The notes under the pieces: model-generated | Told to the model about the DNA's origin: nothing | Databases searched by the model: none | Seen by the model: the letters and a program-made list of their open reading frames with translations, nothing else | Translations under genes and position numbers: made by a program | Virus record (IMG/VR): IMGVR_UViG_3300045988_161023 | Reading direction: 5' to 3' (one strand) | Length of the DNA: 48,341 nt | Source of the DNA: a virus | Shown: positions 5,306-32,646 of the stretch, one piece after another | How positions within the stretch are numbered: the first letter of the stretch is position 1 | Layout: each line of letters begins with the position of its first letter

Positions 5306-5551
5306 TCACACAGCATGACTCACCTCTTCGGGTTCGGTGGGAGTGCTGGGAGCGGCTGGAGGCCATAGGTCGGGCCTGAGAGATGAGAGGGGGATACCCA
5401 AAAAACGATTATAACGAATGGCAGCTTCAGGGCTTATAACGCGATGTTTCTTGAAATGCCTCCACACCGTCACATAAGGAAGCCCTGAGCGTGCGGCCGC
5501 GTCAGTGATTGTGAAGCCGTAAAAACTAGGGTGGGAAAGTTCGTTCTTCAT
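5306..5551 (-). CDS. Cro-like HTH regulator
   Basis: 81-aa HTH protein (FTITDAAARSGLPYVTVWRHFKKHRVISPEAAIRYNRFLGIP) transcribed divergently from the CI-like repressor. Confidence 0.6.
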   Translation of the reverse strand: MKNELSHPSFYGFTITDAAARSGLPYVTVWRHFKKHRVISPEAAIRYNRFLGIPLSSLRPDLWPPAAPSTPTEPEEVSHAV

Positions 5552-5641
5552 GAGAACTAAATACCAGTAGGTAAAATTATAGTCAACATAATTTACCTAT
5601 TGGTGGTAGCAATTCTTTTTTCCAGCTGGTAAAAAATTTTT
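5552..5641. promoter_or_regulatory. OR-like operator and divergent promoter region between cro-like and cI-like genes
   Basis: 90-bp AT-rich spacer with three related dyad sites, TACCAGTAGGTAA, TTTACCTATTGGTGGTA and TCCAGCTGGTAA. The outer two are inverted repeats of one another. Confidence 0.5.
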
Positions 5642-6376
5642 ATGGATATTTACGCTGAATTTTTGGCCTTACTGGATAAGGCCATCGAAAAATGTGGAAA
5701 CGCCAAAAAACTAGCTGAGGCTCTTGACGTTCACCCGAATCTTATCACTCGCTGGAAAAAAGGTGAGCGTGTACCTACTATTACATCAATACAACCTCTT
5801 TTAGATTTTCTTGGTGTAGGGTTTTCCGATCCAACCGTTACCCAAAGTAAAGAGGTCTGCTTTGTTGACGCGCGTATAGCCCCGGCTGGGGACACGCTCC
5901 CCCCTCCCCCGGATGAAGACTACCTCGCCGTTCCCCTTGTGGAAGAAGTTGGCGCGGGGCCCGGCATCATTCCGCAAAATGAACTCATCTCGTGGTTCCT
6001 CGTCTGGCGTCACCAGCGGGCCATTCAACACAAGCGCGATCTGATCGCCGTCATGCTCGGAAAGCATTCAACTTCGATGGTTCCCACGCTCAAGCCGCAG
6101 GATATTGTGCTGGTGGATAGGCAGGATAAGGATGTGATGAACTTTAAGGGAAGAATCATGCTTGTCCTCGATCCCGCCGACGGCAGCGGAAAGATCAAGC
6201 GCGTGGCAGCGGAAAACCAGCCGAAAAAGCGCGACTATCGCATCACCTACTATTCGGACAACGCCGCCGAGAATCCCCCCGAGGTCTACAGCTTAATGGA
6301 AGACTTCGAGGGGGACTGGAACAAGTCCATCGTCGGTCGGGTTGTATGGGCGTGGAGTGACGTGAGCTGCAAATGA
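5642..6376 (+). CDS. CI-like repressor (XRE HTH plus S24 LexA-like autopeptidase domain)
   Basis: N-terminal HTH LAEALDVHPNLITRWKKGERVPT. C-terminal S24 motifs HSTSMVPTLKPQDIVLVD (Ser nucleophile) and GSGKIKRV (Lys). Confidence 0.85.
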   Translation: MDIYAEFLALLDKAIEKCGNAKKLAEALDVHPNLITRWKKGERVPTITSIQPLLDFLGVGFSDPTVTQSKEVCFVDARIAPAGDTLPPPPDEDYLAVPLVEEVGAGPGIIPQNELISWFLVWRHQRAIQHKRDLIAVMLGKHSTSMVPTLKPQDIVLVDRQDKDVMNFKGRIMLVLDPADGSGKIKRVAAENQPKKRDYRITYYSDNAAENPPEVYSLMEDFEGDWNKSIVGRVVWAWSDVSCK

Positions 6377-6410
6377 AAATCCCCGCCGGAGCGGGGAGGA
6401 GGGAGATGCA

Positions 6411-7292
6411 ATGGGTCCAGTTGATAAAGTTGCATATGAAGCTTTGAATAATTATTGTATTAAACTAGAAGAACATCTCCAGTCTGATGTTTTTTTGTTT
6501 TATGGTGGTATTCACCCTAACCACAGAACATTCTTTACCACTGAATTTGAAAAATTAGCTAGAAAGAAAAAACATAAATCTCTTGCTGTCAATTTAACAA
6601 CAAATGGCGGCAGTGTAGAAATGGCTGAGATAATGGTTGAGGTGATGCGTAGGTTCTATGATGAAGTATATTTCATTGTACATGAATATGCATACTCAGC
6701 GGGTACTATTCTTTGCATGTCTGGCGACAAAATATATATGAATTTTGCCTCATCATTAGGCCCTATAGATCCTCAAGTATTGTCTAATGGACAATGGGTT
6801 CCTGCACAAGGGTATTTAGATCAATTTGATGCAATATGTAAAAAATCATTAAATAAAGATTCTAATAACCCCATAAGTCCAGTAGAGTTACAAATGGCTT
6901 TAAATTTAAATCTTGCTGATTTAAATTTTTATCAACAAGCACGAAATATAACCGTAACGCTATTAAAAAAATGGCTCGTAAATTATAAATTTAAAGACTG
7001 GACAATTCATAGTAAAACAAATACCGAAGTCACACTTAAAGAAAAAGAGCATAGAGCTGAAGAAATAGCTAGAATATTAGGTGATAATGCTCACTGGCAT
7101 ATACATGGAAGACATATAGGAATAAAAACTCTTCAAGACGATCTAAAGCTAAAGATTGAAGATTATTCAGACGACCTTAAATTATATAGATTAGTAAAAG
7201 AATATAATAGACTTGCGATTGACTTTTCATCAAAATATAACTATCAATTATTTTTACATACTAGAGAAATGACTAATGGGAGTTTACTCTAA
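6411..7292 (+). CDS. S49/SDH-family Clp-fold serine protease (moron in the rexA position)
   Basis: TNGGSVEMAEIM...VHEYAYSAGTILCMSGDKIYM...GPIDPQV matches the SppA/ClpP-fold GG(S/T)V...SAG...DKI pattern. GC is strikingly low, about 30-35% by eye against roughly 60% in the flanks. Confidence 0.7.
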   Translation: MGPVDKVAYEALNNYCIKLEEHLQSDVFLFYGGIHPNHRTFFTTEFEKLARKKKHKSLAVNLTTNGGSVEMAEIMVEVMRRFYDEVYFIVHEYAYSAGTILCMSGDKIYMNFASSLGPIDPQVLSNGQWVPAQGYLDQFDAICKKSLNKDSNNPISPVELQMALNLNLADLNFYQQARNITVTLLKKWLVNYKFKDWTIHSKTNTEVTLKEKEHRAEEIARILGDNAHWHIHGRHIGIKTLQDDLKLKIEDYSDDLKLYRLVKEYNRLAIDFSSKYNYQLFLHTREMTNGSLL

Positions 7293-7492
7293 TGAAAATC
7301 GACAAAAAGCATTATAAAATGTCATTATTACTTAAAAATATAGAAAACAATCCAGCATTGAAACATCATCATGAAATGATGTTAATTTTAAAAAATATGG
7401 GCATCAAGACAAACCCTATTCAACAAGTTGATTTTACAAATAAAAATATCACCGAACTATCTAATATGAATATTAATCCATTAGTACCTTAA
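7292..7492 (+). CDS. Small hypothetical protein, translationally coupled to the protease (TAATG overlap)
   Basis: 66-aa ORF with the same low GC. No family recognised. Confidence 0.5.
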   Translation: MKIDKKHYKMSLLLKNIENNPALKHHHEMMLILKNMGIKTNPIQQVDFTNKNITELSNMNINPLVP

Positions 7493-7506
7493 CGGAGCCT
7501 CCCTTT

Positions 7507-7533
7507 GCCCCTCCTCGTGAGGGGCTTTTTTGT
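7507..7533 (+). terminator. Rho-independent terminator after the cI / protease / small-ORF operon
   Basis: GCCCCTCctcgtGAGGGGC followed by TTTTTTGT. Confidence 0.65.
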
Positions 7534-7589
7534 GCCCTATGGGACGTGACCGCCGATGCCTTCATGGTGTCGGCGGTATTTTTATATCT

Positions 7590-7645
7590 CATATTTTACC
7601 TATTGGGAATTTTATTCTTGACCTATTTTTTACCAGTTGGTATTG
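7590..7645. promoter_or_regulatory. OL-like operator / leftward-operon promoter region
   Basis: TTTTACCTATTGGG repeats an OR site (12 of 12 nt). TTTACCAGTTGGTAT is a TACCA-NN-TGGTA palindrome. The region precedes the long plus-strand early operon. Confidence 0.4.
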
Positions 7646-8088
7646 TAGCTTCACGACGAACGGAAAAGGCGAGTGGCGCGGCAACGGCCCGCTGAAAGCT
7701 GGAACCGGACGGAGGAAGCCCCAACAAGTACGAGCTCGGCAAGCGCAAGCCTTTGGGAGGGGAAGCACGCGACGGCAGGAAAAGGGGTGAGGTGAAGACA
7801 ATCAGAGCGAAGAAGCCCCCCATTGAGGCGTTGTACCCGGAACTCCCGGCAAGGCGTCCAAACAAGGGCTGAGCATACACGGTTACGACACAAAGATCGG
7901 GCCGTGAAACGTGATGAAATACGAATTTCTACATCCGGGCGGTCAGTTGACTTTCTGACAATTCACCGCCCCGCATGAGAGGCGCAGCGACAATGCGCGT
8001 TGCGCCGAACCATGCGTTGAGATGTGCCGCATGGGAGCGCGCCCCGGCGGGGATTGGCCCCGTCGGGTGCTTGCCTTGAATCATCGAA

Positions 8089-8650: not shown

Positions 8651-8802
8651 TCAAGGAAGTATACGTAAACCCTCCAGGCAAGAAGCGGTTCCCAATGCCA
8701 CCTCAGCGCGAGCGTTTGGCACCCCCTCCGTGGGCGTTGGGCGTGGTCCTCGTGGTTGTGGCTATCTTCATAGGCTCATGCGAATGGGTGAGGGGGATGT
8801 GA
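8647..8802 (+). CDS. Small membrane protein
   Basis: ATGA overlap with the upstream gene. Hydrophobic helix WALGVVLVVVAIFIGS. Confidence 0.4.
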   Translation: MIKEVYVNPPGKKRFPMPPQRERLAPPPWALGVVLVVVAIFIGSCEWVRGM

Positions 8803-9662
8803 TGAACAGGCAAGAATGGCTAGAGGCTAGACGCTCAGGAATAGGTGGAAGTGATATGCCGTCTATTCTTGGAATATGCCCCTTTGGGGGGACACCGTAT
8901 GGTGTATGGCAAGCCAAGGTATGCGGATGCGGTCCAGATAAGGATACCCCGGATATTCAGCGCGGCAGGTTTCTGGAACCTATTATTCGTTCCATGTATG
9001 CGGAACACACAGGCTACGAAGTGCAAACGCCGGGGATGCAACGGCACCCGATAGAGACATGGGCTATCGCATCTCTGGATGGACTCGTCATTCCTCCTAA
9101 GGAGGAAAATGGACTCGCTGTACCGCCGGGCATTCTCGAAATCAAAGCCCCAAGATACAGCAAGTTCGTATCTCTTGAGGAAGACGGAATAACGCAAAAT
9201 TATCAAGTACAGATGCAGCATTACATGGCTGTTACTGGCCTTCAATGGGCTGACTTTTGCGCTTGGAATGCTGACGCATTTAGACTGCTCATCATACGAA
9301 TACAACGTGATGACGATTTGATCAGTTTGATGTGGGATATAGCGCGGGATTTCTGGCAAAGATATGTCCTGACGGGTATCGCACCAGAGCAAGCTACAGA
9401 ATCAAAGATAAGCATTCCGCCTCTTGAGCCTACGCTAGTACGCATTGACACACCTGAATGGAACGAGGCGGCTCGTGAATGGCGAGAGGCGAGAGGTATT
9501 TTAAAAGATGCTGAAGCATACGAGGTCCAGTGCAAAGAAAAACTGATTGCGCTGGCCCTTTCTACTGGCAAGAGCAAGGTAAAAGGGGCTGACGTGTCCC
9601 TATCAGTCGATAAAAACGGAATCCCGAGAGTACGGGATACTGCAAAGGAGCAAGCTGCATGA
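8802..9662 (+). CDS. YqaJ-like / lambda Exo-like recombination exonuclease (PD-(D/E)XK)
   Basis: EWLEARRSGIGGSDMPSILG...TPYGVWQAK...LEIK match the YqaJ viral recombinase motifs. Start at the MNRQEW ATG at 8802. Confidence 0.8.
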   Translation: MNRQEWLEARRSGIGGSDMPSILGICPFGGTPYGVWQAKVCGCGPDKDTPDIQRGRFLEPIIRSMYAEHTGYEVQTPGMQRHPIETWAIASLDGLVIPPKEENGLAVPPGILEIKAPRYSKFVSLEEDGITQNYQVQMQHYMAVTGLQWADFCAWNADAFRLLIIRIQRDDDLISLMWDIARDFWQRYVLTGIAPEQATESKISIPPLEPTLVRIDTPEWNEAAREWREARGILKDAEAYEVQCKEKLIALALSTGKSKVKGADVSLSVDKNGIPRVRDTAKEQAA

Positions 9663-10588
9663 GCCAAGATATGATGTTAAGCGCGGAAATAGTTCCCACG
9701 CAACCCGCATCCGTACCTGTTGCCGTCGACCCGGCTGCAATCGCGGCGGCTGAGGAAGCAAAAGCCATTGTTCAAGCTGCGTATATCATGGCAACGCACA
9801 GGCCAAGAAATTTCATGCAGAGTCGGCAACGCATTCTTGACGCGTGCAAGCGGGCGGCATTCGCAGAAAGGGTTGAATATGCCAAGCCTGTAGGTGGGGG
9901 GAAGATATACGGCCCTTCAATCCGTTTCGCCGAACTTGCGATTCAGCAATGGGGGAATATCCGCGTAGATACCTCTACCCTATTTGAGGGAGACGAATTC
10001 AGAAAAATCAGGGTTCAGGTACTCGACCTCGAAACCAACACCAGCTTTTCCAAGGTGATCACTGTAAACAAAACCGTAGAACGAAAAGATTCATCCGGGA
10101 GAGAGGTTTTACGGTCACGCAAGAACACATACGGCAAAGACGTATTCATCGTAAGAGCCACGGAAGAGGAACTTGCCACGAAAGAGGCGGCAGCCATTTC
10201 CAAAGTTGTCCGAAATGAGGGTTTGCGGCTTATCCCCCAAGATATCATCGACGAAGCCCTTGAGACTGCAAGGGAAGCAAGACGCGGAGCAGTTCGCGAT
10301 CCGCATGAAAGAATCAGAAAAATATGTGACTGCTTCGCATATTATCGTATCACTCCTGAAGACTTAGGAGACTATCTAGGCGTAAGTATTGAAAAGGCAA
10401 GCACAGCACAACTTGAAGATCTGGAGTTGGTTTACAATGCAATCCGAAGTGGTGAAGCGAAATGGGCTGATTACGCCAAAAAAGACGACTCCGAAGACAC
10501 GCATAAAAATACGACAAAAGCCGCCCAAGATCTGAAAGACAGGCTTCAAAGCGCAAAGGCAGCGGCATCGTTAAGTAACCCTGAATAA
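9659..10588 (+). CDS. RecT-family single-strand annealing protein (partner of the YqaJ exonuclease)
   Basis: ATGA overlap with the exonuclease gene. AIVQAAYIMAT and LFEGDEFRKI resemble E. coli RecT SAIVQCSQLG and VREGDEFSFE. The yqaJ-yqaK gene order is conserved. Confidence 0.6.
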   Translation: MSQDMMLSAEIVPTQPASVPVAVDPAAIAAAEEAKAIVQAAYIMATHRPRNFMQSRQRILDACKRAAFAERVEYAKPVGGGKIYGPSIRFAELAIQQWGNIRVDTSTLFEGDEFRKIRVQVLDLETNTSFSKVITVNKTVERKDSSGREVLRSRKNTYGKDVFIVRATEEELATKEAAAISKVVRNEGLRLIPQDIIDEALETAREARRGAVRDPHERIRKICDCFAYYRITPEDLGDYLGVSIEKASTAQLEDLELVYNAIRSGEAKWADYAKKDDSEDTHKNTTKAAQDLKDRLQSAKAAASLSNPE

Positions 10589-10635
10589 CCACCCCGGCCC
10601 GGCTCACCACCGGGCCTTTCTTTTGAGGTGATGCC

Positions 10636-15078: not shown

Positions 15079-15573
15079 ATGCGAAGACCCATCAACCCCG
15101 TAATCCCGTACCCGCACGAGGCCGTCCAACACACCCGCTGTGTTCTGGCCCTGTCCATGATCACCGTGGCCATATCCCTCCTCAAGCCCGAGACTCTTCC
15201 TCAGCTTGGTGACCTTGGCAGGCAGGTCGAGAAGGTCAACCGCTGGATCGACCGATGCGCGGATGACACGCAGAAGCGCAGGCTCTCCGCAGGCGCGAAG
15301 CGAGATCTGGATGCCCGGTTCCATATCCTTGCCGGGCATGTCGGGGACATTCAGACGGCTTCCGGCGACGCTTCCCGCTGGACGCAATGGGGCGCCGGGA
15401 TGTGGGCCGGGCTGACCTTCCTTGAGGACTGCCGGAACACTTGCCCCGCCTACTTCCGGGGCCTTCACTGGCACAACCTGCTCAAGACGCTGACCACGCT
15501 GTGCAATGCGCTTGAAAATGTCGACCCGCAGATAGCAGAGATTGGGACGCGGGTGTACGAGCGGGCCGCGTAG
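15079..15573 (+). CDS. Hypothetical protein
   Basis: ATG preceded by GGAGGAGAA. Trimmed from 14959..15573. Confidence 0.5.
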   Translation: MRRPINPVIPYPHEAVQHTRCVLALSMITVAISLLKPETLPQLGDLGRQVEKVNRWIDRCADDTQKRRLSAGAKRDLDARFHILAGHVGDIQTASGDASRWTQWGAGMWAGLTFLEDCRNTCPAYFRGLHWHNLLKTLTTLCNALENVDPQIAEIGTRVYERAA

Positions 15574-15581
15574 GGGGAGAT

Positions 15582-15773
15582 ATGAGTGAGGCAGAAAAAC
15601 TGCAAAAAATTGCCCAGATTATGTTGGAAAAAGAGAAGAAAGAAAAAGAAGTTGCAGCACTTAACCGCATGATTGCCGAACTTCTAGGAATATCCTCTAC
15701 AGAAACAATGAAATTACCGAACAAGGTCTATTCATCAAATCAGTTTAAAGCTGCATGTAGGGGGGCAAAGTGA
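15582..15773 (+). CDS. Small protein upstream of and overlapping int; possible excisionase/DNA-binding protein
   Basis: 63-aa ORF with GGGGGAGAT RBS and a GTGA overlap with the int start. The Xis assignment rests on position only. Confidence 0.35.
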   Translation: MSEAEKLQKIAQIMLEKEKKEKEVAALNRMIAELLGISSTETMKLPNKVYSSNQFKAACRGAK

Positions 15774-16768
15774 GTTGGTCACAGAGATCTGACGGTCGAT
15801 TCATTGTAAAATACAAAGACAAAGGAATATGGAAACAGATTTCTTTCACAGACAAAGAGAAGGCTATACTCTTTGACGCAATGCATAACGCCCCAAAAGA
15901 AGAGATTCGTCTCACTATGGGAGAATTGATCGTCAAGTATCTACATGGAAATCCGGATCTTTTTCATGAAACCCGCGAGCGCATTATCTGGTTGTATGCC
16001 GATGGTGGTCCATGCGCCTTCATGCGCGACAAATATGCAGATTCTCTAAATCGCCAAGACCTCGAACAACTTCGGGAAAACATACGGGAACGCAAAGCCA
16101 GCAACAACACGTCAAACCACTATCAAGCATATACAAGGGCAATATTGGCGTGGGGAGTCGATCAAGGTCTACTTGTGCTTAACCCTTGGCGAGATTTCAA
16201 AAAACTTAAAATATCAAAACCAATTCATACCGCAACGTTACTAGATCTGAAACGCTTATATCCTTTTCTTCCCCCTTATCTGCAATGGGCCGCAAAGACG
16301 GCCTTTTTTTTGGCACTTCGCCCGGGGATGGTTGAGCTTTTCAGCTTGAAATGGGATGCCTTCGATTTTAGGCGGGGAATCGTTTCAATCCGTCAAGGTA
16401 AAACAGGAAAGATCAAGAGTGTCTATCCGAACCCTGTGTACATGCAAGAAGCCGCCGCACGCTGTGCCGAAGATTTCAAGCGAGGGGTAGCGCTGGTTTG
16501 CCACAACAATGGGAAACCCGTTCTGTCCTACCATAAAATGTGGGGAAAGGCGTGCCGACAAGCAGGGGTCAATTTAAGGTTCTACGATGTGCGACACCTT
16601 GCCGCTACAGAAATGCTTGCCCGTGGCGCAGACCTTGCCGCAGTCGCCGCCCAACTCGGCCACGCATCGGTAACGACAACCGGAAGCACATATGCGCACG
16701 TCACCCCGGGGGGGCAGTCACATGCCGGATCACTCATGCCTGCAATCGACATCGAACCGAACTCATAA
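15770..16768 (+). CDS. int: Tyrosine recombinase / phage integrase
   Basis: C-terminal catalytic region RFYDVRHLAATEM...LGHASVTTTGSTYAHV carries the R..H..R..Y signature. GTG start after GGGGGG. Confidence 0.9.
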   Translation: MSWSQRSDGRFIVKYKDKGIWKQISFTDKEKAILFDAMHNAPKEEIRLTMGELIVKYLHGNPDLFHETRERIIWLYADGGPCAFMRDKYADSLNRQDLEQLRENIRERKASNNTSNHYQAYTRAILAWGVDQGLLVLNPWRDFKKLKISKPIHTATLLDLKRLYPFLPPYLQWAAKTAFFLALRPGMVELFSLKWDAFDFRRGIVSIRQGKTGKIKSVYPNPVYMQEAAARCAEDFKRGVALVCHNNGKPVLSYHKMWGKACRQAGVNLRFYDVRHLAATEMLARGADLAAVAAQLGHASVTTTGSTYAHVTPGGQSHAGSLMPAIDIEPNS

Positions 16769-17560: not shown

Positions 17561-18075
17561 GCTTCTCCCCCGCCCGGCATGGAGATATCAACGGTGATGC
17601 CCTGCACCTCTTCCAGCGTCATACAGGCATCAAGCCGATCTTCCAGTGCCTGCCGCTGGCCGATGATGGAGCCGGACGCCACGGCGAAGGCGTCGGCCTT
17701 GGCGAGCACCCTGCGCACAAGCCCATCAAGAGGGACACCCCGAGCCTGTGCCAACGCCGAAAGAAGCGGCGTTGAAGCCGTAGGGTCGGCAGCATAGGCG
17801 CGGCCCTCGGATTCCTGCTTGTCGAACGTGCTGATTTCGCGGTCCGGGTAGGTCGCCGTAAGTGTGGCTATGGCCCTGTCCGCAGCCCCGTTGATTTCCG
17901 AGAGCTTGGCGGCCTTGGCCTCGTCAAGAGATAACTCCGGATACGCTACGATCTGAAACTGCCGCTGTTCGCCGTCTTTTTCTGTCTCTTTGATGTACGC
18001 CCGGTTTCCGTTACACCATTCAGCGGCATCTGGGGGATACGTATCAATAAAGTACTGTCCCACGCTAAATTCCAT
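17557..18075 (-). CDS. Putative tail fibre assembly protein (Mu U / lambda Tfa-like position)
   Basis: Immediately downstream of the tail fibre gene. The call rests on size and position more than sequence. Confidence 0.45.
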   Translation of the reverse strand: MEFSVGQYFIDTYPPDAAEWCNGNRAYIKETEKDGEQRQFQIVAYPELSLDEAKAAKLSEINGAADRAIATLTATYPDREISTFDKQESEGRAYAADPTASTPLLSALAQARGVPLDGLVRRVLAKADAFAVASGSIIGQRQALEDRLDACMTLEEVQGITVDISMPGGGEA

Positions 18076-18091
18076 ACGTTGCTCCTATTTT

Positions 18092-19294
18092 TTAAAAACC
18101 ACACGCGTACCACGCAAAGGGCGCTGACAGTCTTTTGGTTTGCCCGTTCAATATTTCAACATAGAAACTTGTGGTTGAATATGAATACGCCTGCATCGAT
18201 ATGTTATAAAAATTGTCTTGATACGCAGGGCTGACAGAAGATAGCTGAATATTATAGAGTCCATTGAGAAAGGGAGTGGGAAATGTGATGATGGTGTCAC
18301 CAGACTCCGCTGTTTGAGCCATACCCCACTGTTCAATAAAACCGTCGCTGTACTTTCGATAAAACCATCCGTCACCAGACGCTCCTCCAACTATCGTTGC
18401 CGCCAGAGGATGGTCGTTGATATTGACAAAATAGCCGTGCTGGAAAGCAGATCCCGGACGTCCGCAGTAAGAATTGACAATCGCGCCCCCGGTGGGTTCG
18501 ATAGAGAAATAGTTGGCGGCGGCATCCGCTGTCATTATGCCGCATAGCACCCCAGCGGGGCTATGCACGCCAAAAAGCCGAGCACGCATCTGATAAAAAG
18601 GCGCTTCTTGCGTTCCAACCACGAATTGCGCGGAATTTCCACACTGTATCGACCCAAGCATGGTACCGCCAGACAGCGGCAATTTTGCATTTGCCGCAGT
18701 AACCCCGGCAGTCCCCTGATCATATGCAGCCTTGACCGCCGTAGCGGACGCAGCCGTCGTCGAATCCGCCAGGCTCACGCTGTCGGTCAGCTTCGCCGCG
18801 AGAGTCACGTCAGCAGAGAGCGGGCCGCCGCCAGTGAGCCCCGTTCCGGCGATGACCCGCCGCGAATCTGGAACAAAGTCGCCGGAGACAAAAGATGCAA
18901 GCGAAACCCAGTACGCGCGGTTTGCTTGCTGTGCAGGGTCTTTTGCTCCAGTTCCCGATACATCTGGCCCGGAAGGTTGCAACGCGATGTACTCGACATC
19001 ATCACTTCCTTTGACATGAGAGCCCGCGATATAGTTCAGCGTAGCTTGCCACGGGTAGACGCATCCGGATTGTTGGAAAAAGGCGTGTTGACCAAGCAAG
19101 TTGAAAAGCGCGTTCATCCACGCTCTTTCAACCATGACGCCGCCCGCGTCCGGGTCGACCTGCGTGATGAACGGAAAGAGATCCCGGAAAGAAGGAATAC
19201 CTTGACCTGTCGGGGTCGTCTCAGGGATCTGCACGGTATCCGCTGCATATCCCAAGACGTTGGGCATGATGCTAGGAGTCGAGGGAATAGGCAT
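18092..19294 (-). CDS. Tail fibre protein
   Basis: 400 aa. Conserved N-terminal fibre-attachment region, then Gly/Ala/Thr-rich shaft (TGLTGGGPLSADVTLAAKLTDSVSLADSTTAASATAVKAAYD...LPLSGGTMLG), then a C-terminal distal domain. Confidence 0.75.
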   Translation of the reverse strand: MPIPSTPSIMPNVLGYAADTVQIPETTPTGQGIPSFRDLFPFITQVDPDAGGVMVERAWMNALFNLLGQHAFFQQSGCVYPWQATLNYIAGSHVKGSDDVEYIALQPSGPDVSGTGAKDPAQQANRAYWVSLASFVSGDFVPDSRRVIAGTGLTGGGPLSADVTLAAKLTDSVSLADSTTAASATAVKAAYDQGTAGVTAANAKLPLSGGTMLGSIQCGNSAQFVVGTQEAPFYQMRARLFGVHSPAGVLCGIMTADAAANYFSIEPTGGAIVNSYCGRPGSAFQHGYFVNINDHPLAATIVGGASGDGWFYRKYSDGFIEQWGMAQTAESGDTIITFPTPFLNGLYNIQLSSVSPAYQDNFYNISMQAYSYSTTSFYVEILNGQTKRLSAPFAWYACGF

Positions 19295-31668: not shown

Positions 31669-32472
31669 CTATGCGGCACGGCGAAGGCGGTACTTGCCCA
31701 GCATGTTCAGGTCGTTTTTCAGGGACAGCCGGAAGGCTTCGATCACGTCGACGTGGTACGCCTTCACGCTCCCGAAACGGCTGTCCTCGATTTCCCGGAT
31801 TTCGTAATCCATACGGCGGGACATATCGGAAAGCTTGCGTCCCGCGACGGAGTACGCGGCTGGCGTATCTGCGAAGATGTCAAGGAACCACGGGATGCCC
31901 TTCACGGACTTGTAGTCCCTGCCCCGCCCAAGTTCGTTCTCAAGAGCCGCAGCCTTGCGTACGGCTGCGGAGGCGGTTGCCATTGCGGTGGCCTCGCGGC
32001 GTGAACCGATTTCGGCCTTGGTGCGGATTGCATCGTCGCGCTCGGCTTCGATGCGCCTGATGGTTTCCTGCGCGACCAGCACGGCGCGGGCAAGGATGAC
32101 TTCGGGGGTATCGTCCAGCTTGGCTATCAGGTAGCCGCCCGTCTTACGGATGGAGGGGATGACCTCATGCGTCACCCACCGCTTGAACGCCTTGGCTTCG
32201 GGCTTGCGGGAACGCAGGATGAGGGAATACAGGCCCGGTTCTGAAATGATACGGCTATCGCGTCGCAATCCTGTGGAATCATTCAGAGTGTGGATAATAT
32301 CGACAATAGGGCGTTGCTCGTCGTGCTCCAGAATGTCCGGCAGATCCCGCGTCTCCGTCCCGAGGACGGCGCATACATCCCGCGCCACAAACCACGGCTC
32401 ACCCTTGTGCTCGATCACGCGAAGGGAACCGAACTTTTCATGCTCAAAAAGAGCCAAGGGAGAATTTTCCAT
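31669..32472 (-). CDS. Antirepressor with N-terminal Bro-N domain
   Basis: Start at MENSPLALFEHEKFGSLRVIEHKGEPWFVARDVCAVLG, which is Bro-N. ATG 32472 is preceded by GGAGGTG. The 50 upstream codons of the track ORF are leader sequence containing the promoter motif. Confidence 0.7.
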   Translation of the reverse strand: MENSPLALFEHEKFGSLRVIEHKGEPWFVARDVCAVLGTETRDLPDILEHDEQRPIVDIIHTLNDSTGLRRDSRIISEPGLYSLILRSRKPEAKAFKRWVTHEVIPSIRKTGGYLIAKLDDTPEVILARAVLVAQETIRRIEAERDDAIRTKAEIGSRREATAMATASAAVRKAAALENELGRGRDYKSVKGIPWFLDIFADTPAAYSVAGRKLSDMSRRMDYEIREIEDSRFGSVKAYHVDVIEAFRLSLKNDLNMLGKYRLRRAA

Positions 32473-32525
32473 CGCTGCACCTCCATAGTGTTTTGGAGAT
32501 GATGCCGCATGGCGGCGTGGGGGCA

Positions 32526-32543
32526 CACCGTGAACAAGGTTCG
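32526..32543 (-). promoter_or_regulatory. Late-promoter dyad motif copy 3 (CACCGTGAACAAGGTTCG)
   Basis: Sits 54 nt upstream of the antirepressor ATG. Confidence 0.5.
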
Positions 32544-32646
32544 TGCAGGCAAAAGAAAAGCCCCTTTCGGGGCGGAGGGCGGCGGCGGTGGATTTTTGGA
32601 ACGGCCTATGCCATGATAGCCTCATCTATAATAAGGGGGATGATGT

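Follow-up and report, generated by a model that had tools for sequence, protein, structure and literature searches.

Two AT-rich genes lie between the repressor and the left operators

The stretch of DNA analyzed here, referred to as the window, is the 48,341-nucleotide viral sequence recorded in IMG/VR as IMGVR_UViG_3300045988_161023. Its immunity region carries, between a cI-like repressor gene and a set of OL-like operators, two AT-rich genes that encode a Clp-fold serine protease of the SDH family and a protein of 66 amino acids (aa). This gene pair is one copy of an autonomous, horizontally moving cassette with obligatory pairing, which in this phage probably acts as a defense module expressed in the lysogen. 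The features of the region are as follows.

5306-5551, minus strand: cro-like small helix-turn-helix (HTH) regulator of 81 aa, with a weak HTH_3 match and a match to phrog_35, "transcriptional repressor" (E 1e-4)
5562-5575, 5592-5605 and 5618-5633: OR-like cluster of three TTTACC-N4-GGTA sites, between the cro-like and cI-like genes
5642-6376, plus strand: cI-like repressor (HTH_3, E 6e-6; Peptidase_S24, weak, E 0.01; phrog_4, "transcriptional repressor," E 3e-14)
6380-6397: GC-rich 7-bp hairpin, between the cI stop codon and the ribosome-binding site (GGAGG) of the protease gene
6411-7292, plus strand: SDH-family Clp-fold serine protease of 293 aa (PF01972 SDH_protease, 35.0 bits against a cut-off of 31.3)
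7292-7492, plus strand: 66-aa partner, its start codon overlapping the stop codon of the protease by one base (TAATG)
7507-7587, plus strand: tandem intrinsic terminators, with stems at 7507-7525 and 7549-7577 and a T-run after each
7595-7608 and 7629-7642: two OL-like operators, after the terminators
7618-7646, plus strand (rightward): PL-like promoter, TTGACC-17-TATTGT, overlapping the OL-like sites

The coordinates of the protease and 66-aa open reading frames (ORFs), and the place of the cI-like gene before them on the same strand, agree with an earlier note on this DNA, which had compared the layout to lambda OR-cI-rexA-rexB-OL. The cro-like gene is divergent from cI, with its start adjoining the operator cluster, and is followed by three operators, the cI-like gene, the protease gene, the 66-aa ORF, two tandem terminators, and two operators over a rightward promoter. 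The comparison with lambda has held up, as E. coli lambdoid and Stx1 prophages carry a homologous cassette in place of rexAB. The same was true of the proposal that OR-like and OL-like sites with shared elements bracket the block: there are five sites in total, and TTTACCTATTGG occurs verbatim at both 5592 and 7595. When TTTACCNNNNGGTA was used in a pattern scan allowing up to one mismatch, these five OR- or OL-like sites were recovered, with none elsewhere in the 48 kb. In total, the scan gave 6 matches (the five sites, with one palindromic site counted on both strands) against 1.08 expected by chance, and none of 100 shuffled sequences reached 6.

In 200-nucleotide windows, GC content was 0.24 to 0.39 across 6400-7500 and 0.50 to 0.60 on either side. 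The protease gene has a GC content of 0.31 compared to 0.57 for its flanks, and the two cargo genes together reach about 31%. The AT-rich character of the pair was therefore described correctly in the earlier note, although its value of about 60% for the flanks was slightly generous, given the 50 to 60% measured. A strong terminator does follow the 66-aa ORF, but as two tandem hairpins and not a single one; the terminator region folds with a minimum free energy of -47.1 kcal/mol (z -5.2). The hairpin at 6380-6397 is followed by a U-tract on the minus strand only, and because it lacks one on the plus strand, it should not terminate read-through from cI. It may act in RNA processing or transcript stability, or may be a relic of an earlier context of the cassette.

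The cassette moves as a unit between prophages

Positions 6344-7583 of the window match a prophage of Bilophila wadsworthia ATCC 49260 (locus L014; also L100) at 99.4% by blastn, and the protease of that strain is 100% identical to that of the window. The cI/OR region (5360-6344) and the OL region (7583-7878) of the window are unmatched in this prophage, leaving 6344-7583 as the sole stretch within about 5360-7878 that the two have in common. Upstream of its cassette, the ATCC 49260 prophage has a different S24 repressor (E 4e-18), and its operator regions differ as well. Because a heteroimmune prophage shares only this stretch, the mobile unit can be delimited as 6344-7583, comprising the short hairpin, the two genes, and both terminators. 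The relation between the window phage and the ATCC 49260 prophage is one of immunity-region mosaicism around fixed cargo.

The protease and a small partner are paired across bacterial phyla

The protease belongs to a family of 6135 members at an E value of at most 0.001. The best 120 of these measure 264 to 325 aa and are 46 to 90% identical to the window protease, 119 of them lying at 46 to 63% and the closest at 90%. A scan of species representatives, with one genome per species, yielded at least 579 confirmed loci carrying the protease, distributed over Bacteroidota, Acidobacteriota, Planctomycetota, Gemmatimonadota, Pseudomonadota, Deinococcota, Bacillota, and others. Identity to the window protease at these loci was 45 to 51%, except for the Bilophila copy and one Desulfovibrionaceae locus. 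The protease sequence is also present on many contigs from gut metagenomes.

Co-occurrence of the pair in other genomes, which the earlier note had offered as a check, was evident: a co-oriented ORF of 56 to 84 aa follows the protease gene in 77 of the 79 loci kept. The two exceptions are L029, where an insertion sequence has entered and the protease is also truncated, and L020, where the ORF was dropped in a later extraction. The downstream ORF starts within about 25 nucleotides of the protease stop codon in all but two loci, where the distance is about 100 to 115 nucleotides. The window pair agrees with the definition of the cassette in its protease, which is at least 45% identical over its full length, and in the length (66 aa) and offset (0) of its partner. 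In five-fold cross-validation, 74 of 79 extracted downstream ORFs were recognized by a hidden Markov model (HMM) trained on the others, and by sequence similarity these 74 form one homologous family of small proteins. Common to its members are a helical region at the N-terminus, the segment G-[ILV]-x-x-K-x-x-Y, and, in the tail, a motif most often reading P-x-x-D-T-I-G-R. The family has no entry in Pfam, NCBIfam, PHROGs, or PADLOC. A profile search of 1.84 billion representative proteins found 200 partner clusters, nearly all of them stand-alone proteins of 58 to 100 aa, and no convincing fusion was seen among the 200.

GC content of the protease gene was below that of its flanks in all but 2 of the 76 loci for which flanks were available. 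A search for a conserved third gene among the two nearest genes to each side in 78 loci was negative; since the neighbors vary in size, orientation, and family, no third component is conserved. At a minority of loci, type I, II, or III restriction-modification genes, Schlafen/AlbA_2 or PLD genes, or PADLOC candidate genes lie within two genes of the pair. In a Mailhella genome, for example, the pair adjoins a type I restriction-modification system with a Schlafen ATPase.

Prophages have captured the cassette repeatedly behind their repressors

Among 53 non-redundant IMG/VR viral contigs with the cassette, 21 have an S24 repressor gene directly upstream on the same strand, and in additional contigs of this set the gene in that place belongs to an HTH family. 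In a second prophage lineage (L007 to L012), whose cI is 23% identical to that of the window, a 60%-identical protease lies 35 nucleotides after the S24 repressor and is followed by an ORF of 73 to 77 aa, a third gene of high AT content, a terminator, and a promoter with operators. The third gene of L007 (9115-9489, 124 aa) has a sub-threshold match to Trypco2, trypsin-co-occurring domain 2 (E 0.009). The window cI-like protein aligns with the L007 repressor across "S-M-x-P" and "KR" motifs and an Ala-Gly site. It consists of an N-terminal HTH and a LexA/S24-type C-terminal domain, with putative self-cleavage motifs whose catalytic assignment is read from this alignment.

The full cassette occurs in 17 complete E. 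coli genomes, and prophages of two of these carriers were inspected. In the lambda-like prophage L093 the cassette lies between cI and N, and in the Stx1 prophage of 2015C-3121 (L092) it is flanked by cI and the early-left genes. E. coli copies are located at 3196527-3198368 in LHM10-1 and at 3291765-3293989 in 2015C-3121. The E. coli prophage copy combines a protease 48% identical to that of the window with a 56-aa ORF, in the place of rexAB, and its partner matches the partner family significantly (E ~1e-6). This partner (L093 9691-9858) also has a sub-threshold ArgR winged-helix match (Pfam E 0.0055; NCBIfam E 0.0033), which hints at possible DNA binding by partners. Another three E. coli prophages, relatives of the Stx1-type carrier, have the 56-aa partner directly after cI and no protease (L099 7014-7184, FHI_NMBU_10; hits H45 and H46). 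No locus with an intact protease and no partner was seen. Directly after the cassette in L092, a hicAB toxin-antitoxin pair is found (10003-10592), such that the cI-to-early-left slot of this prophage holds stacked cargo. According to PMC8585504, the region from cI to N is a mosaic hotspot, occupied by rexAB in lambda and by bstA in BTP1, and the repressor promoter that drives it is highly expressed.

The protease is a distinct member of the SDH family

The PF01972 match covers residues 56 to 125 of the protease, and the protein also scores above the cut-off of PF00574 CLP_protease (21.6 bits against 20.2). Of the label "S49/SDH" applied in the earlier note, the SDH and Clp-fold part is accordingly retained, and the S49 part is not: the SppA domain model TIGR00706 gave 20.9 bits against a cut-off of 155.45. 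The head-maturation model NF045542 gave 33.3 bits against a cut-off of 120, and phrog_53, a family of head-maturation proteases, was matched weakly (E 6e-7). The protein falls in phrog_11747 (E 3e-56), for which no function is recorded. Residues 53 to 134 align with the NCBIfam equivalog NF047768, "SDH family Clp fold serine proteinase," at 46 bits against a cut-off of 250, and the E. coli homologue likewise scores under this cut-off, at 54.5 bits. A score this far below the cut-off places the protease in a separate SDH subfamily, bacterial and mobile, which is set apart by a helical C-terminal domain of its own (WHxHGR) and by the obligate small partner. Comparison with phage proteins by tblastn was uninformative, giving only partial matches of 26 to 34% identity (e.g., Gordonia phage BeeGee gp31 and a Shewanella Mu-like phage).

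An AlphaFold2 model of the protease reached a predicted local distance difference test (pLDDT) score of 92, with the N-terminal half adopting the Clp/crotonase fold. The closest solved folds are those of SppA, the 1510-N stomatin-specific protease, and ClpP (Foldseek E ~3e-6, TM 0.3 to 0.44, identity 13 to 18%). Over its full length the model resembles giant-virus "serine dehydrogenase proteinase" models (TM 0.57). Ser96 (YSAGT) aligns with the nucleophile of ClpP ("AASMG"). In 39 sequences, S96, D120 (GPIDPQ), D137, K145, H230, and H232 (WHxHGR) are invariant; we read D120 as sitting at the position of the ClpP His, and the candidate catalytic residues are D120 or D137 for the Asp and H230 or H232 for the His, as judged from the alignment. 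The conserved order of Ser, Asp, and His fits the family, whose name comes from that order. The gene is under purifying selection, with a ratio of nonsynonymous to synonymous polymorphism (pN/pS) of 0.14. Because the model has neither a signal peptide nor a membrane segment, the protease should not be exported, and it is predicted to be a cytoplasmic effector.

The small partner is translationally coupled to the protease

With a start codon that overlaps the protease stop codon, the 66-aa partner is translationally coupled to the protease. It has no match in Pfam, PHROGs, PADLOC, or NCBIfam. Comparison with a 90%-identical relative gave a pN/pS of 0.20, again consistent with purifying selection. 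The AlphaFold2 model consists of a two-helix hairpin (residues 5 to 35, pLDDT ~80) and a disordered tail. A database search with this ORF alone retrieved six close relatives only. Partners from the same clade (Bilophila, Mailhella, and other Desulfovibrionaceae) are mutually homologous and have in common the pattern A-x-K-H-H...M-G-[FI]-x-P-N-P-x-Q.

The window is a complete temperate phage genome

One of the gut-metagenome contigs that carry the protease sequence (ERZ807525 NODE_4; 48,475 bp, coverage 911) spans the junction from the end of the window to its start. The window is therefore the complete genome of a temperate phage, about 48.3 kb long and circularly closed. Its host is probably Bilophila wadsworthia. 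A search for near-identical DNA with half of the window against 50,697 phage records gave no match. The phage has a contractile-tail module, an integrase, and the lambda-like immunity region described above. Features outside that region are as follows.

8730-9662: YqaJ exonuclease, downstream of the OL-like sites (PF09588, E 2e-26)
9659-10588: 309-aa ORF after the YqaJ exonuclease, with no Pfam match
15079-15786: position equivalent to an anti-restriction gene in the gene list of the related contig L001
27765-29270: tail sheath of the contractile-tail module
31669-32625, minus strand: Ant-type anti-repressor gene (phrog_130, E 1e-41)
40026-41756: head-maturation protease, between the portal and major capsid genes (phrog_2229, E 2e-108)

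The genes beyond the PL-like promoter are of the early-left type. The 309-aa ORF is taken for the recombinase partner of the YqaJ exonuclease; at the related locus L005, a 309-aa RecT occupies the equivalent slot. In related contigs, Pfam marks in the early-left operon an N6/N4 DNA methyltransferase and a Lar-like restriction-alleviation gene, which constitute anti-restriction cargo carried by the same phage (in L001, also at 18059-18400). The anti-repressor gene is located among late and tail genes, distant from the immunity region.

Relation to known systems

In the earlier note, a protease with a tiny partner in this position was not a system that could be named. This was probably wrong, as DefenseFinder lists a two-gene system, FS_HP_SDH_sah, consisting of a hypothetical protein and SDH_sah/PF01972. 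The system is reportedly encoded by phage-inducible chromosomal islands (PICIs) and experimentally active. The literature searched on SDH_sah, Clp fold serine proteinases, the FS_ systems, and S49 together with anti-phage activity yielded a single passing mention of FS_HP_SDH_sah, with no account of mechanism. Going by name and domain, the cassette probably corresponds to FS_HP_SDH_sah: both pair one PF01972 protein with a hypothetical protein, which in the window is small, and both have mobile elements as carriers. The window cassette differs in residing in a prophage immunity region and not at the accessory end of a PICI, where FS_HP_SDH_sah is said to be carried. The window partner is divergent enough in sequence that a profile of the FS_HP_SDH_sah partner would probably miss it. 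We therefore regard the window protease as probably belonging to a catalogued family that here sits in the immunity slot of a prophage and has a partner diverged beyond recognition. The logic of the slot is familiar from textbooks, and the gene pair probably figures already among the listed defense systems.

RexA is a cytoplasmic sensor and RexB spans the membrane several times, whereas the cassette encodes a soluble serine protease and a 66-aa soluble protein with no relation to them in sequence or fold. No homology of either protein to RexA or RexB was found in PADLOC (E up to 0.1), Pfam, or PHROGs. What the two have in common is the arrangement of two genes on the cI strand between cI and OL/PL, closed off before PL (PMC8585504), and probably also the expression in the lysogen that is characteristic of rexAB. 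The resemblance is best described as an analogy of place, not membership. A further precedent is BstA, a defense gene that recurs directly behind prophage repressors in a variety of bacteria and is known from settings other than prophages as well (PMC8585504). The distribution of the cassette is similar, in that it occupies the prophage repressor slot and other sites; BstA, however, is one protein only, which binds DNA and comes with a DNA-encoded self-immunity element, and it has no protease and no homology to the cassette. With the SDH-family proteinases (PF01972, NF047768) the cassette protease shares the Clp/crotonase-fold N-terminal domain and the order of Ser, then Asp, then His. It differs from SppA, 1510-N (NfeD), and ClpP in having no membrane anchor and a different C-terminal domain, and no ATPase partner was seen among the neighbors of the cassette. 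Tai, "tail assembly inhibition," was considered as an identity of the cassette and rejected, as Tai involves no protease.

Proposed function and alternative explanations

The analysis establishes the anatomy of the locus, the mobility of the cassette, its obligatory pairing, its repeated capture behind prophage repressors, and intact catalytic residues under selection. From position, mobility, and neighbors we infer a defense function, and every step of the mechanism proposed below is likewise inferred. We consider it reasonably probable that the cassette is expressed in the lysogen and defends it against other phages, by superinfection exclusion or by aborting infection; the protease would be its effector, and the small protein would regulate it. 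Also in favor of this reading are the purifying selection on both genes, the intact catalytic residues, and the listing of FS_HP_SDH_sah by DefenseFinder. The two genes are a horizontally acquired cassette that occupies the cargo slot between repressor and OL in a temperate phage of Bilophila. In the lysogen they would be transcribed at the 3' end of the cI message. Such co-transcription is suggested by the gap of 34 nucleotides between cI and the protease gene, in which no promoter-like site was found, and by the lack of a plus-strand terminator before 7507. The tandem terminators would shield the cassette from the PL-like promoter, whose direction is away from the cassette. The protease would cleave a phage or host protein. 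Its partner would keep it silent or give it specificity, acting as an inhibitor or pseudo-substrate that occupies the groove of the active site, or else as a sensor that infection removes. The title of one SppA structure refers to C-termini bound in the active sites and to self-processing, which offers a precedent for a peptide tail in the groove.

Several observations weigh against this interpretation. The window partner has no significant homology to the widespread partner family (HMM E 0.13, with a model built from 72 partner sequences of the 79 species-genome loci; hhalign P 0.004, with a profile of the Desulfovibrionaceae-clade partners; cross-validation E 12), and it lacks the P-x-x-D-T-I-G-R motif. 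It agrees with that family in position, length, alignment register, "KNMGI," and predicted hairpin-plus-tail shape, and at the level of sequence it is too divergent for homology to be proven. In a PADLOC scan, neither protein matched any family at E values up to 0.1. Most chromosomal copies lie among housekeeping genes, and the association with defense genes is modest. Expression together with cI is deduced from spacing, and an unexplained hairpin at 6380-6397 separates cI from the protease gene.

A more specific version of the defense reading is tentative and, in our estimation, somewhat doubtful. Under this proposal, the cassette would be a protease-based immune module with a new mechanism, in which a dedicated partner of 60 to 70 aa restrains the soluble protease through its flexible tail, a pseudo-substrate or bait. 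A phage product would displace or destroy the partner, and the freed protease would then cleave a phage protein or an essential host protein. The Desulfovibrionaceae version, that of the window included, would represent a re-invented partner tail with a different trigger specificity. The partner-only E. coli variants and the lack of any protease-only locus give a faint hint of a toxin-antitoxin-like logic.

The same two observations favor a role in addiction, in which the protease would be a toxin and the small protein a labile or DNA-binding antitoxin, the pair would stabilize the prophage or islet, and defense would be a by-product. Tight coupling, with the small ORF beginning 0 to 25 nucleotides after the protease gene, would be expected of such a module, as would the scattering of the cassette among housekeeping genes in the manner of a selfish insert. 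The weak, sub-threshold ArgR winged-helix match of the E. coli partner (E 0.005) and the presence of hicAB beside the cassette in the Stx1 prophage point in the same direction. We nonetheless judge this explanation unlikely, as it leaves the repeated capture in a lysogen-expressed repressor slot unaccounted for and no antitoxin or DNA-binding domain was detected in the partner above threshold. It is also compatible with the defense reading, many toxin-antitoxin modules acting as abortive-infection systems.

Less likely still is lysogenic conversion, whereby the pair would serve host physiology, for instance through the processing or degradation of a protein or peptide from the host or its environment, and would have no role toward phages. 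That the family is mostly chromosomal, spans many phyla, and often lies beside metabolic genes would agree with such a role, as would the lack of a match to any known defense profile in PADLOC. No consistent metabolic neighbor was found, however, and the protease model has no signal peptide or membrane segment. The cassette is moreover AT-rich and mobile, and in viral contigs it is strongly associated with repressor genes.

The location of the protease directly downstream of cI, with which it is probably co-transcribed, recalls ImmR/ImmA and raises the possibility that it acts in the phage's own lysis-lysogeny circuit by cleaving the repressor, cII, or an anti-repressor. We regard this as very improbable. 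A 99.4%-identical cassette is at work in a prophage whose repressor and operators are different, most copies lie outside prophages, and the cI-like protein keeps apparent LexA-type self-cleavage motifs in the alignment and so would need no separate protease. ImmA, in addition, is a metalloprotease unrelated to the protease of the cassette.

A head-maturation protease or housekeeping SppA-type peptidase, the identity that the earlier note had named as fatal to its proposal if homologues consistently lacked the small partner, is effectively refuted despite the weak matches to phrog_53 (E 6e-7), NF045542 (33 bits), and the SppA domain, since the models score far under their cut-offs (SppA, 21 bits against 155; head protease, 33 bits against 120), the partner is near-universal and obligate, and the phage carries its own head protease between the portal and capsid genes, 33 kb from the protease at 6411-7292 in the immunity region.

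Implications

If the cassette is indeed a defense module of lysogens, the rexAB position would have been refilled repeatedly by the same portable protease cassette, from a sulfite reducer of the human gut to Shiga-toxin E. coli, and the rule of "defense cargo behind the repressor" would extend well outside the enterobacteria. The obligate partner family, with about 200 representative clusters, would provide a handle on the control of an otherwise uncharacterized protease system. The copies in E. coli lambdoid and Stx1 prophages, together with the natural partner-only variants, would be tractable material for work on mechanism. Should the bait-tail proposal be correct, it would give bacterial SDH proteases their first assigned biological role. 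A defense function would also be relevant to phage research on Bilophila wadsworthia and to the fitness of lysogens that carry Stx prophages.

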